Notes: generated by a model from the sequence alone, not told the origin. Counted from the first letter of the stretch, positions 2 through 5,785 are shown. The stretch: DNA of 5,785 nucleotides from Candidatus Iainarchaeum sp. (GCA_937968065.1 CALBUD010000063.1:1-5785); one strand, 5' to 3'. Numbers and translations: made by a program.

Positions 2-877
2 AAAAAAAAAGAGTCTGCAAAAAAATATTGGAAAGCTGTTTGTGAAAATAATCTTTTAGGAACATCTATAACTGAATACAATAATTTAAATCCTTATAAA
101 GCATATTTAGAATTATTAAAACATAAACCTAAAGATAAAGTATTAATTCCAGGTATAAAAGTTATAACCGATTCAGGAGAAGTTTTAATTTATTCAAATA
201 CTCCTGAGATTTATAATTATTCTATACTTTATGAAAATAAAGTTTCTTTAAAAAGAATAATTGATTTTTGTAATAAAAAAAATTATTTAATATCAATTGC
301 ACATCCTTTTGGTCTTATTTCAAATTCAGCAACATATATTCTTGGACTTGATAAATTAGAAAAATTAGTTAAAGAAAAAAAAATAGGAGTGGAAGCATAT
401 ACTGGAATTATTGGTTATTTAACTTATTATTTATATGATTCTTTTTTTTTAAGAAAAACAAGACATCTTTTAGATTATCTTGAACTTCATAGGTTATTTA
501 AAACTATTGGATTTTCAAGACTTAGTGAGTCTTTAACAAATAAACTTGATCAAAAATGTTATGATGTTGTATATAGATTTGAAGCTGCGATAAAATTAGG
601 TAAATCTGCAAAATATGTAACTGCAGGTTCTGGTGGATATAATGTTGATGATATTGGAAGTGGAATTTTAACTTTAGATCTTCCAAAATCTTTTTTTGAG
701 ATTAAAGATGATTTTTCAAAAAATAAATTTTTGTTAAATAAAATTAAATCTAAAAAAATAAAAGCAGTTGGACCTCCTGGAAAATATACTGACAATCTTT
801 TTGAAAGATCAACTGCAAGAAAAACTAAAAGAAAAGCATACAATGATTTAATGTATCTTACAAAGAGATCTATTTAA
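2..877 (+). CDS. PHP (polymerase/histidinol phosphatase)-fold domain protein, 5'-partial (runs off the left window edge), with partly degenerate metal-ligand motifs
   Basis: Frame 2 is open from position 2 to TAA at 875-877, so the listed GTG start at 389 is probably internal. The translation has PHP-like blocks in canonical order: VLIPGIKVITDSGEVLIY (140-193, cf. 'v.GiEi....GH.l'), ISIAHPFG (293-313, cf. 'AHP'), IGVEAYTG (383-406, cf. 'iEv.N') and VTAGSGGYNVDDIGSG (617-664, cf. 'GSDAH....iG'). The C-terminal tail is basic. The family call is by eye only. Confidence 0.55.
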   Translation, partial: KKKESAKKYWKAVCENNLLGTSITEYNNLNPYKAYLELLKHKPKDKVLIPGIKVITDSGEVLIYSNTPEIYNYSILYENKVSLKRIIDFCNKKNYLISIAHPFGLISNSATYILGLDKLEKLVKEKKIGVEAYTGIIGYLTYYLYDSFFLRKTRHLLDYLELHRLFKTIGFSRLSESLTNKLDQKCYDVVYRFEAAIKLGKSAKYVTAGSGGYNVDDIGSGILTLDLPKSFFEIKDDFSKNKFLLNKIKSKKIKAVGPPGKYTDNLFERSTARKTKRKAYNDLMYLTKRSI

Positions 878-889
878 TGTGAATAAATT

Positions 890-1621
890 ATGGATATTTT
901 ATATGTGCCTTTAATTGTTTTTACTTTAATTATTTTATTATATGTAACTTATCAAGATATAAAATATAGAGAGATAAATGTTATCTCTTTGTTAATTTTA
1001 GCGGTTGTAAGTGTTGTTTATCTTGGAATTTTTATTTTTAAAAATAATTCTTTTTTATGGTATAATTATGTTTTACAATTAATTATAACTTTTTTGTTTT
1101 TATTTATATTTTATCTTTTAGGAAAATTAAGTAATCTTACATATATTGGAGAAGGAGATTTATATATAATTCTAGGAATCTCTTTTACCAATATTTTTGA
1201 TATTTATTTTTCTATGTTTATTTTTATTTCTGCTTTGTTTTTAAATTTGTTAATACCAATAGGTATCTTTTTATTTAATCTTTTATCTAAAAATTATCCA
1301 AAACATTCTTTTTTAAAATCGATTTATTTGATGTTTTTAGGATATCCTCTAAAGTTAAATAAGATAACTAACTTTTATACTCCTTTAGAGAAATATGTTT
1401 TAGAAGAAGGTATTTTAAAATATAAAACAACTATTAAACCAAATATTGAACCTGAAAAAGAATTAAAATTACTTAAATCTTTTGCAAAAAAAAATAACAT
1501 CTCCCAAATTTGGGTTTCTCCTTTAGTTCCTTTTGCAATACTTATCTTTTTAGGTTATGTTCTGGTTATTTCTCTTTATCTTTTAGATATTATTAATTAT
1601 TTGTTAAGTTTCTTCATATAA
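890..1621 (+). CDS. Archaeal-type A24 family aspartic peptidase (prepilin/preflagellin peptidase, FlaK/PibD/EppA-like)
   Basis: 243-aa polytopic membrane protein. The first catalytic Asp sits right after TM1 in YQDIKYREI (D23, codon 956-958; cf. 'D.K.R.IP'). The second Asp sits in a GxGD motif, IGEGDLY (D90, codon 1157-1159). There is no N-terminal methyltransferase or Cys-rich domain as in bacterial PilD. A soluble insert followed by IWVSPLVPF resembles the archaeal A24 C-terminal domain. It lies directly upstream of FlaI-like and FlaJ-like genes. Confidence 0.85.
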   Translation: MDILYVPLIVFTLIILLYVTYQDIKYREINVISLLILAVVSVVYLGIFIFKNNSFLWYNYVLQLIITFLFLFIFYLLGKLSNLTYIGEGDLYIILGISFTNIFDIYFSMFIFISALFLNLLIPIGIFLFNLLSKNYPKHSFLKSIYLMFLGYPLKLNKITNFYTPLEKYVLEEGILKYKTTIKPNIEPEKELKLLKSFAKKNNISQIWVSPLVPFAILIFLGYVLVISLYLLDIINYLLSFFI

Positions 1622-1706: not shown

Positions 1707-4640
1707 ATGGGTAATAAAGAAGATTCTTTAGAATTTAAAGTAATTAAAAGAATTCCTTTATCTACAGGTGTATCTTCTAAAACAACTTCTAAAAATATTG
1801 ATTCTCTTAATATTAAAAGATTAGATTCTATAGATATTAAAGAAACTAATATTAAAGAAACTAATCTTAAAAAAACAACTCCAGATTTTAAACAAAATTT
1901 AAAAGACATAAGAGATATTACTTTTAAAAAAGTTTCAAAATTAGATGATGTTGAAAATAATTTAAAAGAAGAAGTTCCATTTAAAATAAAAAAAGGTTCT
2001 TTAGAATTAAATAATTTTAAAAAAGAACCAAATGTTTTGAAAAATAAATCTTTAGAAGAAAATAAATCTTTAGAAAAAGTATCTTCTTTTACTCTTGATG
2101 ATATCAAACAAAATAAAATTAAACCTAAAGAAAAAAAAAAAACTATAAAAAAAATTGAAGTTATTGATAATTTAATAAGTCACGATGCTTCTTTAAAAAA
2201 CCAAGAAACTTCATATCCTTTACATTTTAGTAATGAAATTTATAAGGAAGGACGTATAATTAATTCTTTAGAAAATATTTTAAAAAATATTGATAATCCT
2301 TTTACTATAAAAGAACTTTCAAAAAAAGAAGAATTTATAGATCAATTTAATCAAGAACAAAATAATGTAGATACTCTTTTATTAGAATTAAATAAAAAAA
2401 CAAATAAACTAGATGAAGATGTTTTTTTAGAATCTTTTTCTTTTCTTGATAATAAACCAAAAATTGAAAAAATAAAATACCCTTCATATAATGTAAAACA
2501 TCTTTATTCAAAGATAGATAGCTTAAATAAAGAAATAATTTCTGAAAATAAAGAAAAAATAAATGAAAAAGAAAAGCAAGTTTTTAAAAAAGATGATTTT
2601 AATAATTCTTTAATTGAAGAAATTGAAATTCCTGATGTTTATCCTCTTGAAGATAATGTTGAAGATGTTAATCATATTATTGAAAATAGATATGTAAAAG
2701 ATTCTTTAGAGGATTTAGAAGATACTAAGATATTAAATCAAGATTTGAACGAAATTCCAAAAATAAAAACTAATGAAAGTTCTTCAAAAATACCTAATTT
2801 TGTTTTAGAAAATAAAAAAATTAAATTAAATAAAGATATTGAAGAAAATATTAATAGAACACAAAAACCATTAAATAAAAATAATAACCCTTCAGAAAAA
2901 TTTAATATTAATAAATTTTCTGATAAAATAAAAGAAGATGATGACCATACAAAAGATATTTATTCTAAAATAAATGTAAATAAAGAAGATGATCAAAAAA
3001 TAGAAACTAAGTATAAAGAATTAAAAGATCCTTTAAATATTAGAAAACAAAAGAAAATAAAAAAAGAATATATTGTTATTAAAGAAAAACCAAAAGTTAA
3101 AAAAGATTTAATTTCTGAAAAATATTCTGATTTTAAAGAAAAAGGAATTGATTATATTCTTCCAAGAGATGTTGGTAAAGAAAAAATAAAAAAACAACAA
3201 ATATATATAGAATCAAAACCTGAAAAAGACTCTAATTTTTCTTCACTTGTATATACTGATCCACTCTATGTTTCAAATAAAGAAGTTTCTCAAATTTTTG
3301 AAAAATATTCAATTGATGAATTTACATATGTTACTATTTATTATGATTCTGAAAAAGGTTTGTTATATAACTTAGTTCAACCAGAAATTCCTTTAGATGA
3401 AGAAAAAGAATATTCTCAAATTAAAAAAATATTTTTTAATACTATAGATCAAAACTATTATTCTTTTAATGGAGATAAAAAAAGTCTTGAAAAATATATT
3501 GAAAAAATATATGATATTTCTCTAAATAAATTATCTTATTCTTTAAATAATCTTCAAAAAAAACTTTATTTTAAATTTATTCAAAGAGATTTTTTTGGAC
3601 TTGGAATTTTAACTAATCTTTTGCAAGATAAAAAAATATTAGAAATAACTTGTTCTGGAGAAAAATCAAGTATTTTAGTAAACCACATAGAATATGGAAA
3701 TTTAAAAACAAACATTAGTTTTTCAAGTATTAGAGAACTAAATAATTTTGTAGAAATATTAACTAAAAATATGGGCCTTTTTATAACTGAATCTCACCCT
3801 GTAATAGATGGTTATCTTCCAAATGGATATAAAGTTGAAGGACTTTATTCTTCAGGAGATACCAGTAGTAAAGGATCCTCATTTGTTATTAAAAAATATT
3901 TAGATGAACCTCAATCTCCAGTATCTTTAATTAAAACAAGTATTGGTTCTATTGATTTATTTACATATATATGGTCTGCAATTTCAGAAGACTATAAAGT
4001 AATTATTGTTGGTCTTGATGACTCTTTTACAATATTTAATTCTATTTTATTATTTTATCCAAATAAAAAAATAATAACTGTTCAATCATATGATCGTTTA
4101 AAACTTCCACAACAAGAGTGGATTAATAGAGTTTTTACGAATAATCCAGATATTGATAAAAAGTTAATAATAAATCAAACAATTTCACAAAAACCAGATT
4201 ATTTTATAGTTGATCAATTTCAAGAAGATATTTTTGATGTTTCTTGGCATAATATAAATATGTTTTCAATATCTCCAATAGTCTATAATGAAGTTTTAGA
4301 AAAATTAAAACAAATAAATCAAAAAACTATTGTTATAGAGTTAAGAAATATAAAACAAGAAATTAAAGAAAATATTCAAATAATATCAATTAAAGAAATT
4401 ATTTCAAATCACGAAATTTTAATTTCAGAAATTGATATTAATAAGAAAGTTTATTCAATTAATCTTTTATCTTCAAACATAAACATTGTTGATTTCTTAA
4501 AACGAAAAAAATTATTAAGATGGATGTTTGATTCTAAGATATATAATTATATAGATTTTAATAATATTGTTTCTGAGTTTTATTTTCAAAAAGACAATAT
4601 TTTTAAAAGATTAAACATTGATATAGATGAGGATAAATAA
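1707..4640 (+). CDS. FlaI/ArlI-PilB-like (GspE/VirB11 superfamily, T2SSE) secretion NTPase homolog with degenerate nucleotide-binding motifs and a ~500-aa low-complexity N-terminal extension
   Basis: 977-aa ORF. From ~aa 520 it is colinear with archaeal FlaI-type ATPases: FTYVTIYYDSEKGLLYNLVQPEI (cf. 'v.I..d.....Y.v.EP.l'), QRDFFGLGILTNLLQDKKILEITCSG (cf. 'rd.vGyG.i..lm.D..iEDIsc.G'), VNHIEYGNLKTNISF, PVIDGYLPNGYKVEG...KGSSFVIKKY (cf. 'PivDa.LpdGsRi......GssFtIRKF') and a C-terminal LKRKKLLRWM block. The Walker A, Asp-box, Walker B and His-box positions are substituted (see findings). Confidence 0.85.
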   Translation: MGNKEDSLEFKVIKRIPLSTGVSSKTTSKNIDSLNIKRLDSIDIKETNIKETNLKKTTPDFKQNLKDIRDITFKKVSKLDDVENNLKEEVPFKIKKGSLELNNFKKEPNVLKNKSLEENKSLEKVSSFTLDDIKQNKIKPKEKKKTIKKIEVIDNLISHDASLKNQETSYPLHFSNEIYKEGRIINSLENILKNIDNPFTIKELSKKEEFIDQFNQEQNNVDTLLLELNKKTNKLDEDVFLESFSFLDNKPKIEKIKYPSYNVKHLYSKIDSLNKEIISENKEKINEKEKQVFKKDDFNNSLIEEIEIPDVYPLEDNVEDVNHIIENRYVKDSLEDLEDTKILNQDLNEIPKIKTNESSSKIPNFVLENKKIKLNKDIEENINRTQKPLNKNNNPSEKFNINKFSDKIKEDDDHTKDIYSKINVNKEDDQKIETKYKELKDPLNIRKQKKIKKEYIVIKEKPKVKKDLISEKYSDFKEKGIDYILPRDVGKEKIKKQQIYIESKPEKDSNFSSLVYTDPLYVSNKEVSQIFEKYSIDEFTYVTIYYDSEKGLLYNLVQPEIPLDEEKEYSQIKKIFFNTIDQNYYSFNGDKKSLEKYIEKIYDISLNKLSYSLNNLQKKLYFKFIQRDFFGLGILTNLLQDKKILEITCSGEKSSILVNHIEYGNLKTNISFSSIRELNNFVEILTKNMGLFITESHPVIDGYLPNGYKVEGLYSSGDTSSKGSSFVIKKYLDEPQSPVSLIKTSIGSIDLFTYIWSAISEDYKVIIVGLDDSFTIFNSILLFYPNKKIITVQSYDRLKLPQQEWINRVFTNNPDIDKKLIINQTISQKPDYFIVDQFQEDIFDVSWHNINMFSISPIVYNEVLEKLKQINQKTIVIELRNIKQEIKENIQIISIKEIISNHEILISEIDINKKVYSINLLSSNINIVDFLKRKKLLRWMFDSKIYNYIDFNNIVSEFYFQKDNIFKRLNIDIDEDK
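1836..1865 (+). repeat. Perfect 15-bp tandem duplication (attaaagaaactaat x2), in frame, encoding IKETN-IKETN
   Basis: Read directly: 1836-1850 and 1851-1865 are identical. It lies inside the low-complexity N-terminal extension. Confidence 0.9.
2043..2078 (+). repeat. 18-bp-period tandem repeat (aataaatctttagaa + 3 nt, x2), in frame, encoding NKSLEE-NKSLEK
   Basis: Read directly: 2043-2057 equals 2061-2075. The trailing triplets differ (gaa vs aaa). Confidence 0.9.
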
Positions 4641-4678: not shown

Positions 4679-5521
4679 ATGTTTAGTAAATTTTTAACAA
4701 AAATATCTAGTTATTTTTTTAAAGATCTAATCATAAAATTAAAACCAAATTTAACTGGTTTTGAAAAAGTGTTAAGTTATACAGAAATAAATGAAGATAC
4801 AGTTACATATCTTTCAAACATATTATTTTTATCTTTATTTTCTTTAATCATCATAGAATTTGGTCTAATCTTTTTAATGATAAGATTAAATATCTTATTT
4901 AATCTTTTAAGTTTTTTTATAACTATTGTTATTTCTTTTACATTTTCTTTTATGATTTTCTTGCTATTATATAAATATCCTTATTATCTACTAGATATAA
5001 AAAAGAAAAAGATAGATGAGGAATTTACAAGAAACATAAGACATCTATCTGTTTTAAAAGATGAAAACTTAAGTATACAGGATGTTTTAAACATTTTTAA
5101 AAACTTAGAAAATAATGATCTTTTAAGTAAAGAAGCAAGAAAAATAATCTCTTTAACAAAACAAAACCATAACTTAAGAGATACTTTTAAAGCAATTATT
5201 TCAGAAACTTACTCGGAAGTTGAAAAAAACTTTTTTAGAAAGTTGATAAGTGTTATTGATAAAAAAGAAGATTTAAACCAAGTTGTTTCAGATTTTCTAA
5301 ATTCTTTAGAACAATCAAGAAAAGAGATTAGTGAACAGAAAAAAAGTAGAGTTAACCTTTTATTCTTAATTTCTATATTTTTATTTTTCTTTTTTATAAT
5401 TATTTTAATATTAATTTTTATGACGGTTACAAATTTATCTTTATTAAAAGAAATGTTAATGATTTTTGCAATAGTTTTTTCAATTGTTGAGTTTATATTA
5501 GTATTAATATTATTTAAATGA
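4679..5521 (+). CDS. Single-repeat type II secretion system F-like (FlaJ/TadC/PilC family) polytopic membrane platform protein
   Basis: 280 aa. Predicted topology is two N-proximal TM helices (about LSNILFLSLFSLIIIEFGLIFLMI and LLSFFITIVISFTFSFMIFLLLY), then a ~115-aa charged helical cytoplasmic domain, then two C-terminal TM helices. The helical domain contains LSKEARKII...NLRDTFKAI...YSEVEKNFFRKLISVIDKKEDL, resembling the T2SSF pattern 'l..e...i......l..al.....ps..l..f...l....G.dl'. It sits immediately downstream of the FlaI-like gene, the canonical FlaI-FlaJ order. The call rests on topology plus synteny. Confidence 0.6.
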   Translation: MFSKFLTKISSYFFKDLIIKLKPNLTGFEKVLSYTEINEDTVTYLSNILFLSLFSLIIIEFGLIFLMIRLNILFNLLSFFITIVISFTFSFMIFLLLYKYPYYLLDIKKKKIDEEFTRNIRHLSVLKDENLSIQDVLNIFKNLENNDLLSKEARKIISLTKQNHNLRDTFKAIISETYSEVEKNFFRKLISVIDKKEDLNQVVSDFLNSLEQSRKEISEQKKSRVNLLFLISIFLFFFFIIILILIFMTVTNLSLLKEMLMIFAIVFSIVEFILVLILFK

Positions 5522-5785
5522 GTGTAGAGTATATGAATTTTAAAGATAAAAACGGAACAATTGCTTATTTTGATAAGATAAATGGTGATAGTTTTATTGA
5601 ATTTATTAAAGAAAGGCTTTTATTTTTAAAGGAAATTTTAACTGATGATGGAAGTTTATTTATTCATTTAGATTATAGAATGTCACATTATATAAAAATT
5701 GCTTTAGATGATCTGTTTGGGTTTTCATCATTTAGAAATGAAATAATTTGGAAATATAATTGGGCTAGTACAGTCAAAAAATATT
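5518..5785 (+). CDS. N6/N4 DNA methyltransferase (beta-class, PF01555-like), 3'-partial; apparently lacks the N-terminal (D/S)PP(Y/F) motif
   Basis: The frame is open from ATG 5518 (or ATG 5533) to the window end. An in-frame TAA at 5515-5517 sits just upstream. Translation: MSVEYMNFKDKNGTIAYFDKINGDSFIEFIKERLLFLKEILTDDGSLFIHLDYRMSHYIKIALDDLFGFSSFRNEIIWKY. This matches the MTase block 'y..fm..Rl.e..RvLk.dGsl.iH.D....hy.k..lD.iFG..nF.NEIiW.Y'. ATG 5518 overlaps the upstream TGA (5519-5521) as ATGA. Confidence 0.7.
   Translation, partial: MSVEYMNFKDKNGTIAYFDKINGDSFIEFIKERLLFLKEILTDDGSLFIHLDYRMSHYIKIALDDLFGFSSFRNEIIWKYNWASTVKKY

Follow-up and report, generated by a model that had tools for sequence, protein, structure and literature searches.

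A pseudo-ATPase that appears to derive from a type IV filament motor is maintained across a lineage of Iainarchaeota-type archaea

Type IV pili, archaella, type II secretion, and competence systems are all taken to depend on a secretion ATPase as their universal and indispensable engine. A 5,785-bp stretch of DNA from Candidatus Iainarchaeum sp. (GCA_937968065.1, CALBUD010000063.1:1-5785; the whole stretch is called the window here) encodes a 977-residue relative of these enzymes in which every catalytic motif has been replaced. The protein belongs to a family that, judged by its sequences, is a lineage-wide pseudo-ATPase derived from a type IV filament motor. Our preferred reading, which we hold with moderate confidence, is that it is a dead but selectively maintained descendant of a FlaI/GspE2/PilB-type ATPase, encoded in an operon as the "motor" of an Iainarchaeota-type type IV pilus-like machine, where it likely acts as a noncatalytic scaffold. 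The family is apparently undescribed in the literature searched. We found no description in the open-access library searched of a degenerate, inactivated, or pseudo-ATPase clade of FlaI, PilB, or GspE in archaea or DPANN, and none is described in a census of archaeal type IV pili (PMC4858521), a review of DPANN "dark matter" (PMC6393860), or a review of PilB (PMC11656802).

Results

The nucleotide-binding and hydrolysis motifs are replaced

An earlier reading of the window, made from the sequence alone, had proposed that the Walker A, Asp-box, Walker B, and His-box motifs of this protein are all replaced. Three independent alignments (phmmer, a family hidden Markov model [HMM], and hhalign) agree on the columns concerned and bear this out. 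The replacement peptides lie exactly where that reading placed them (Table 1), as do the blocks that it listed as retained: PVIDGYLPNG (3798-3827), GSSFVIKKY (3873-3899), PDYFIV (4194-4211), and LLRWM (4512-4526). The only coordinate to need correction was the start of the FlaI/PilB-like region, where 3265 is one base off frame and the codon starts at 3264. The open reading frame (ORF) is intact, as had been said.

To describe each site across the family, we tabulated 29 family and 18 canonical sequences aligned to the family HMM. At the former Walker A motif, canonical GGTasGKTT corresponds to VGLD--DSFT in the window. None of the 29 tabulated family sequences has GK[ST], and the family shares the two-residue deletion and a conserved Asp or Glu in the shortened loop. 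The claim that no alternative P-loop exists also stood up to a pattern scan, because GK[ST], GxxxxGK[ST], and the relaxed pattern [AG]xxxx[GAS][KR][ST] are all missing from the 977 residues. GxxxxGK[ST] and GE[VI]R are likewise absent from every family ORF across the approximately 38 loci described below. When solved ATPases were aligned by phmmer, VGLDDS--FTIFNS was placed against VGETASGKTTTLNA, VQSYDRLKL against IEDTREIKL, and PDYFIVDQF against PDYIIVGEV.

The other sites are altered in ways that the family shares. The former Asp box reads [IV]Q[SAPE][YFH]D in the core family, where Gln793 and Asp796 are invariant; P0035 and P0031 differ. At the former Walker B motif, Gly has become Asp836 (Asp in nearly all orthologs and Glu in two) and Phe838 is near-invariant, so that the family site is [VL]D-x-F with E, N, D, Q, H, Y, or V at x. 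The sequence-only reading had given Gln at the position of the catalytic Glu. This is correct for the window, but the orthologs have E, N, D, H, Y, or V there, and from the alignment the position is unconstrained in the family rather than specifically Gln. The His box also needed a refinement. TGHxxxSTxHA aligns with SWHNINMFSIS in the window and the second His is absent, which agrees with overall loss of the motif, but hhalign puts His848 on the first His-box histidine. Most orthologs have Tyr at this position, so it is not a conserved His. The family pattern is W-[YHQFN]; Trp847 does not vary within the core family, and no His is conserved.

We add the arginine fingers to this list of losses. 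Both are replaced by Lys (DGSR by NGYK and IR[KR]F by IKKY) in nearly all members, whereas the two Arg residues are invariant in the canonical alignment. No block of the family is more conserved than the hairpin that once carried them, PxIxGYLPNGYKVEGLYSxGDxSxKGSSFxIKKY. McCallum et al. report complete conservation, among PilT-like ATPases, of the two arginine fingers, the Mg-coordinating Glu of the Asp box, the catalytic Glu, and Walker A and B (PMC5424180), and the residues lost here are exactly those. The features of a T2SSE/PilT-like enzyme that are missing are Walker A, the Asp-box Glu, the Walker B Gly-Glu, the His box, the arginine fingers, and a score above the Pfam gathering threshold. 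In canonical enzymes, the lost motifs serve phosphate and Mg binding, water activation, and sensing of the gamma-phosphate. From these alignments, we infer that the protein has neither canonical ATP binding nor canonical hydrolysis.

The altered pocket raises two alternatives. The first is that a noncanonical site still lets the protein act as an NTPase or as a sensor of nucleotides or another ligand. Its pocket residues are conserved rather than random, and hhhhDE stands at Walker B in about half of the orthologs. However, the E of this pair is variable (Q, N, D, H, Y, or V elsewhere), the P-loop is shortened with no P-loop Lys, Ser, or Thr anywhere, the core family has Gln for the Mg-ligand Glu, and the His box is lost. 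We consider this highly improbable. The second is that the protein forms a self-locked ring in which pocket carboxylates pair with the finger lysines, making a static clamp that mimics the nucleotide-bound state and needs no dedicated pilus ATPase. There are three conserved acidic residues in the pocket (the Asp or Glu of the former P-loop, which is Asp772 in the window; Asp796; and Asp836), the fingers are Lys in nearly all members, and no second ATPase was found in any neighborhood. The gain of three carboxylates, together with the conservation of the hairpin, suggests speculatively that the nucleotide-bound closed state is being mimicked. However, the argument is drawn purely from sequence, extreme A+T bias would also favor Arg-to-Lys changes, and we know of no type IV filament system that works without an ATPase. 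We regard a self-locked ring as very unlikely.

The core is predicted to keep the fold of a secretion ATPase

Despite these losses, the protein is a clear homolog of an active family, as is expected of a pseudoenzyme; phmmer, the HMM alignment, and hhalign all show this. When the core (the C-terminal 458 residues) was compared with the Protein Data Bank by phmmer, the best match was the Archaeoglobus fulgidus ATPase afGspE (2OAP; E value of 3e-36), followed by FlaI (4II7/4IHQ; about 4e-28 to 9e-28). A family profile compared with a profile of canonical DPANN-type ATPases by hhalign gave a probability of 100% and an E value of 7e-56 over 447 columns. Colinearity with canonical ATPases therefore reaches the C terminus, as the sequence-only reading had held. 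The NCBIfam FlaI model (NF058587 equivalog) also matched the window protein (E value of 2.3e-38), but at 132 bits against a cutoff of 550. Pfam T2SSE (PF00437) did not match the window protein at an E value of ≤1 or any of 15 family members at ≤0.1. The hhalign check found neither an intact P-loop nor a Gly-Glu Walker B.

We modeled the core with AlphaFold2 from an alignment of 15 family sequences; the model had a mean predicted local distance difference test score (pLDDT) of 85.6 and a predicted template-modeling score of 0.81. Its best Foldseek matches in the Protein Data Bank were afGspE (E value of 4.8e-30; template-modeling [TM] score of 0.73; 488 columns) and FlaI (about 1e-29; TM score of ≤0.71), with 488 to 497 columns aligned to 2OAP and 4IHQ. 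CpaF, PilB, VirB11, and PilT ranked behind these two. The model thus shows the two-domain fold of a secretion ATPase, an N-terminal domain (NTD) followed by a RecA/ASCE-like C-terminal domain (CTD), which is the arrangement of the T2SSE/PilT-like superfamily (PF00437). A conserved fold had been proposed before, and the model agrees. The CTD has several internal deletions relative to canonical enzymes in the family alignment. It ends in a helical bundle that aligns with canonical C termini and is weakly matched by PF23989 (PilB3_C) in 14 of 15 family members (best E value of 1.6e-4). Taken together, the sequence comparisons point to descent from the archaeal FlaI/GspE2/PilB3 group of secretion ATPases.

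The family is widespread and under purifying selection

We searched for relatives of the window protein in several ways. A word-index search returned 12 (43 to 72% identity), none with a Pfam domain and all without the motifs. They scored at least 364 bits, whereas canonical proteins bearing PF00437 scored at most 126. Two further relatives came from a profile search. We also searched 1.84 billion cluster representatives exhaustively with HMMER (3,177 matches at an E value of ≤1e-3); 16 clusters, formed at 50% identity, scored 598 bits or above, whereas canonical proteins reached at most 282. A metagenome scan added 30 loci. The family now stands at approximately 38 loci from independent metagenomes, with the same losses throughout, and contigs of 977 kb and 699 kb are among those that carry the gene. 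One close relative (71% identity) is in a metagenome-assembled genome labeled Candidatus Iainarchaeum, of the phylum Iainarchaeota and the kingdom Nanobdellati/DPANN.

Across 15 sequences, 58 columns are invariant, and these include Q793, D796, D836, F838, and W847 of the former active site. We also estimated the ratio of nonsynonymous to synonymous substitution (dN/dS) between the window gene and its ortholog at locus L003. The ratio was 0.15 for the NTD, which is the best-conserved part, 0.21 for the dead CTD, and 0.70 for the N-terminal extension; these are rough values, because the synonymous divergence of this pair (dS of about 1.1) is near saturation, and other pairs, near or at saturation, are not quoted. 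The dead domain evolves under purifying selection. Such selection across a lineage is a mark of a pseudoenzyme, and here it is seen in the core (dN/dS of 0.15 to 0.21) and in approximately 38 intact orthologs.

The same data can be set against the idea of a gene in decay (a pseudogene or relic) or of an artifact of sequencing, assembly, or alignment. The absence of the catalytic motifs and the blindness of Pfam T2SSE to the protein are what such a gene might show. However, the family ORFs stay open over 770 to 1,130 codons in DNA of only 20 to 37% G+C, on approximately 38 independent contigs from many samples. The same substitutions recur in the 29 tabulated orthologs and across all of these contigs, which excludes an assembly artifact. 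In addition, the core dN/dS is about 0.15 to 0.2, the 58 columns are invariant, and three alignment methods concur. We consider decay or artifact extremely improbable.

A distant member, P0035 (GCA_043821385.1; locus L009, 8043-10517), is informative about how the motifs were lost. This 824-residue protein scores 237 bits, has about 29% identity, and is encoded in DNA of higher G+C content. Its motifs are also lost (KKDNRKCDE at the P-loop, IESKPEL, VLDYL, and SQGQ...WTNA, with no His), and it lies in the same cassette of a peptidase, the ATPase, and two T2SSF genes. However, it keeps canonical loop lengths. Because P0035 is dead yet has these lengths, the inactivation looks ancient and stepwise, and the deletions look secondary. 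P0035 looks like an evolutionary intermediate in its sequence. A HicAB toxin-antitoxin pair lies just 3' of its cassette.

The N-terminal arm is predicted to be disordered

The first 512 residues precede the ATPase-like core. In a full-length AlphaFold model, pLDDT was below 50 over most of this extension and rose to about 46 to 67 only near residues 221 to 257 and 362 to 385; the model revealed no folded N-terminal domain. Orthologs have arms of about 340 to 680 residues. Conserved islands are scattered along the arm (Table 1), a pattern expected of a flexible arm with short linear binding motifs. The start of the protein is conserved with the L003 ortholog (MGNKEDSLEFKVIKRIPLS in the window and MSEIDGSLDFKVIKRIPLS in L003).

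In the arm of P0029 (1,132 residues; locus L018), (I/V)(I/V)PQELP is repeated in tandem about nine times. In the genome paper on Ca. Forterrea, a figure legend mentions repeats that caused local misassembly in a "secretion-related ATPase" and does not comment on its motifs (PMC5905446, Fig. 1F). That ATPase may be an ortholog of the pseudo-ATPase, and its repeats may be the N-terminal arm.

The gene lies in a type IV pilus-like cassette

The window has a G+C content of about 20%, and all of its genes are on the + strand (Table 1). Where contigs reach far enough, the order of genes in the family is nearly constant: a PHP-like gene, an A24 peptidase gene, the pseudo-ATPase gene, T2SSF_1 (about 280 residues), T2SSF_2 (about 375 residues), a DUF192 gene, and often pilin-like genes. 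The cassette sits among housekeeping genes (NMD3, beta-CASP RNase, TrkAH, ribosomal protein uL16, and NDK). Like other members of the T2SSE superfamily, the pseudo-ATPase is encoded with a T2SSF platform and a prepilin peptidase.

Table 1. Features of the window and of the pseudo-ATPase that it encodes
Feature	Position	Strand	Basis or remark
PHP/CehA-like metallohydrolase-like gene, 3' part	2-877	+	Frame 2 open from base 2; truncated by 5' end of window
A24 prepilin (class III signal) peptidase, FlaK/PibD type	890-1621	+	Pfam Arc_PepC_II 5e-12, Peptidase_A24 1e-5; NCBIfam FlaK 4e-11
Pseudo-ATPase gene, 977 aa + stop	1707-4640	+	Intact ORF, zero internal stops
N-terminal extension, residues 1-512	1707-3242	+	Rich in Lys, Glu, Asn, and Ile; predicted disordered
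Island FKVIKRIPLS	1731-1763	+	N terminus; MVELKKL as alternative in family
Island LLxxLNKxT...FLESFSFLDxxPKIxKI...LYSKID	2367-2525	+	Family alignments
Island LIEEIEIPD (family LIEEIEIPE)	2610-2660	+	Family alignments
Island PNFV...NxxIExxI (family PxFV...NPxIExKIK)	2790-2852	+	Family alignments
Island DYILPxD	3147-3170	+	Family alignments
NTD of ATPase-like core, residues ~513-750	3243-3956	+	phmmer, hhalign, AlphaFold; homologous to FlaI/GspE NTD
Former arginine-finger hairpin, LPNGYKVEG (3816-3842) and SKGSSFVIKKY (3867-3899)	3816-3899	+	Replaces DGSR and RGxxFxIRKF
C-terminal RecA/ASCE-like domain, residues ~751-977	3957-4637	+	Full hhalign coverage; predicted dead active site
Former Walker A, GLDDSFTIFNS	4011-4043	+	Two residues shorter, without Lys or Thr; conserved acidic residue gained
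Former Asp box, VQSYDRL (canonical IEDTxEL)	4080-4100	+	Mg-coordinating Glu replaced by Gln793; new Asp796
Former Walker B/catalytic Glu, FIVDQFQED (canonical hhhhGE[VI]RG)	4203-4229	+	phmmer, HMM, and hhalign alignments
Former His box, VSWHNINMFSISP	4239-4277	+	HMM alignment, hhalign
C-terminal helical bundle, PilB3_C-like (KLLRWM...DFNNI...KRLNI)	4509-4619	+	Pfam PF23989 weak, E 0.011-0.023
T2SSF_1, 280-aa half-size FlaJ/TadC-type platform membrane protein, one T2SSF domain	4679-5521	+	Pfam T2SSF 3.8e-11
DNA-methyltransferase-like ORF, 5' part, begins MSVEYMNFKDKNG	5518-5785	+	Overlaps T2SSF_1 stop codon; runs off window

The A24 peptidase of the window is apparently active, since both catalytic Asp contexts are intact in its sequence (D23 in YQDIKYRE and GEGD at residues 87 to 90). 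T2SSF_1 lies directly 3' of the pseudo-ATPase in nearly all loci. It matches NCBIfam ArlJ/FlaJ (5.6e-11) at profile positions 12 to 242 of 555, which is the N-terminal half of ArlJ/FlaJ, and T2SSF_2 bears a second T2SSF domain. The platform therefore seems to be encoded by two separate genes. In the close relatives L003 and L010 to L013, T2SSF_1 is followed by T2SSF_2, DUF192, and pilin-like genes, whereas in the window it is followed by the methyltransferase-like ORF. The cassette of the window appears to be interrupted or truncated after T2SSF_1. The methyltransferase-like ORF matches an interior segment of an N6/N4 DNA methyltransferase (L007, 10817-12730) at 40% identity, and its start seems to be downstream of the expected position of the DPPY motif.

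At L003, there are two tandem paralogous pilin-like genes, 13879-14406 (175 residues) and 14545-15081 (178 residues), with a near-identical N terminus, KSISAIISVVLLILVTSVMVAGFLSWSKT. Their products have no significant Pfam match and only a weak match to NCBIfam UpsA (E values of 0.08 to 1.4). We call them pilin-like because a charged N terminus is followed by a hydrophobic helix. A 766-residue PKD/cadherin-like surface protein is encoded 3' of this pair.

The PHP/CehA-like gene is a conserved upstream neighbor of the cassette and precedes the peptidase gene in nearly all loci. Its product has 78% identity to a 303-residue protein at L003 (6668-7579), and its sole family match is a weak one to NCBIfam CehA/McbA (E value of 0.0037). 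It contains AAIKLGKS (584-607), the sole match to [AG]xxxxGK[ST] in all frames of the window, which is kept in the L003 ortholog. This is probably a chance resemblance to a P-loop in a non-P-loop fold. A search of the window for tRNA genes and Rfam families found none.

The sequence-only reading had placed the protein where the motor of a pilus or archaellum machine normally sits. The position between an A24 peptidase gene and a T2SSF gene agrees with this, but the machine is of the pilus type. Among the genes in the Pfam tables of six loci, we noted none for FlaH/F/G/X or archaellins; later loci were searched only for the fixed cassette genes. Because no archaellum-specific genes were noted, the gene content indicates that the machine is a type IV pilus-like system and not an archaellum. 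The protein itself falls below the equivalog score of a FlaI/ArlI archaellum motor, and the archaellum genes that accompany such a motor were not noted at these six loci.

These neighborhoods also bear on the possibility that the protein is a noncatalytic partner in a mixed ring with a canonical FlaI or PilB paralog encoded elsewhere, in which it would modulate or anchor the motor and form no ring of its own. Noncatalytic subunits are part of other ring ATPases in this manner. Strong conservation of the fold and NTD would fit such a partner, and co-occurring DPANN archaea carry canonical type IV pilus ATPase loci (L005 and L040). In the archaeal census, duplicated ATPase/tadC operons share pilins (PMC4858521), which is also in keeping with a mixed ring. 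However, an HMM search of the flanks (up to 10 kb per side) of the approximately 38 family loci found no canonical T2SSE ATPase. In an HMM scan of all ORFs in 40 loci, canonical ATPases were present only in the unrelated L005 and L040. A search with a canonical DPANN profile was a weak test, in which none of the 120 matches listed of 7,908 traced to a family contig. To our knowledge, a noncatalytic ring subunit without any nucleotide binding would be unusual. We therefore consider a mixed ring unlikely, though it is the strongest of the rivals to a noncatalytic scaffold.

Two other sets of sequences were considered in connection with a paralog. L040 was rejected as a candidate; it is an ordinary canonical type IV pilus locus of another DPANN organism, found by chance via an RtcB peptide. 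GCA_015657915.1 holds at least two different family members (NPIE01001998.1 and NPIE01071894.1) and is in effect a metagenome, not one genome, which makes it unusable for this question.

Discussion

In the scaffold reading that we prefer, the pseudo-ATPase would form a ring, or part of one, docked on the split FlaJ/TadC platform from the cytoplasmic side, a placement suggested by homology only. Once docked, it would serve as a structural scaffold or adaptor, and its disordered N-terminal arm of about 500 residues, with its conserved short motifs, may recruit other partners. The energy for pilin extraction, if needed, would come from another protein, such as a canonical paralog encoded elsewhere.

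Several observations weigh against this proposal. The hhhhD-E found at Walker B in many orthologs (about half) is a classical ASCE Walker B, and the finger lysines could partly substitute for Arg, which could leave a noncanonical nucleotide site. Hexamerization of FlaI is reported to depend on nucleotide, so a protein without a P-loop may not form a ring at all. The link to the platform has exceptions as well. L032 and L033 (52-kb and 287-kb contigs; 10001-11500) keep an intact 856-residue pseudo-ATPase, but both adjacent T2SSF genes are missing; DUF192 follows about 100 bp after the pseudo-ATPase stop, and no T2SSF homolog was found within 10 kb. In the window, T2SSF_2 is not in its usual place. 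Together, these cases weaken the idea of obligate coupling to neighboring platform genes.

Even so, selection in this lineage has preserved the shell of the engine, where the operon would normally encode the engine itself, although all catalytic residues are lost. It is a natural experiment on what an ATPase ring does beyond hydrolysis, such as platform docking, ring architecture, and partner recruitment. There is also a practical consequence. Public pipelines name the orthologs "flagellar protein FlaI," "VirB11/archaellum (biosynthesis) ATPase," or "hypothetical protein," and inferences about DPANN metabolism or lifestyle that count pseudo-ATPases as a functional pilus motor may be wrong. If these genomes have no canonical paralog, then models of type IV filament assembly would need revision. 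The furthest-reaching version is that this is a DPANN clade without any canonical T2SSE-family ATPase, in which an ATP-incapable ring locked by carboxylate-Lys pairs assembles or holds a type IV filament. We think this quite unlikely. If true, no dedicated ATPase would serve this machine, a first among type IV filament systems, and the machine would be otherwise powered or static.

Comparison with known systems

The best match of the pseudo-ATPase among known systems, in both sequence and structure, is afGspE (GspE2) of A. fulgidus. However, afGspE binds adenylyl imidodiphosphate (AMP-PNP) through an intact GETASGKTT P-loop, where the pseudo-ATPase has VGLDDS--FT. FlaI/ArlI of Sulfolobus acidocaldarius (4II7/4IHQ) shares the two-domain fold (phmmer E value of 4e-28 over core residues 9 to 327; Foldseek E value of about 1e-29 and TM score of about 0.6 to 0.7), and its gene is likewise beside a FlaJ-type platform gene. 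The pseudo-ATPase differs in lacking Walker A, the Asp box, the Walker B Gly-Glu, the His box, and the arginine fingers, in having an extra disordered arm of about 510 residues and a CTD shortened by several deletions, and in that FlaH/F/G/X or archaellin genes were not noted near it.

The PilB3-type ATPases of archaeal adhesion pili (T2SSE plus PF23989; for example, P0013 and P0016) have the C-terminal helical domain and a pilus-type operon in common with the pseudo-ATPase, and an N-terminal extension rich in Lys and Glu is found in P0013 and P0016 too. In contrast, they match PF00437 and carry GGTASGKT, IEDT, GEVRG, and TGH...T.HA, and they have only about 25% identity to the pseudo-ATPase family. 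Two canonical proteins in our set have unusual architectures. In P0043 (1,086 residues), the Walker B region and the His box are separated by a large insertion that looks like an intein with a part resembling a homing endonuclease, and P0033 (1,154 residues) is a tandem fusion of two complete ATPase units. The CpaF/TadA ATPases of Tad pili (8RKD and 9E24) belong to the same superfamily (Foldseek E values of 1e-16 to 1e-17; phmmer E value of 3.5e-5), but they are more distant (TM score of about 0.45) and are active enzymes.

ATPase folds are kept for structural or regulatory roles elsewhere, as in FlaH/ArlH, which binds ATP and has an atypical Walker B, and in the degenerate ATPase domains of EccC. 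The parallel is an analogy. Those proteins belong to other families and usually bind nucleotide, whereas here it is the primary motor of the T2SSE family that has come to lack a P-loop.

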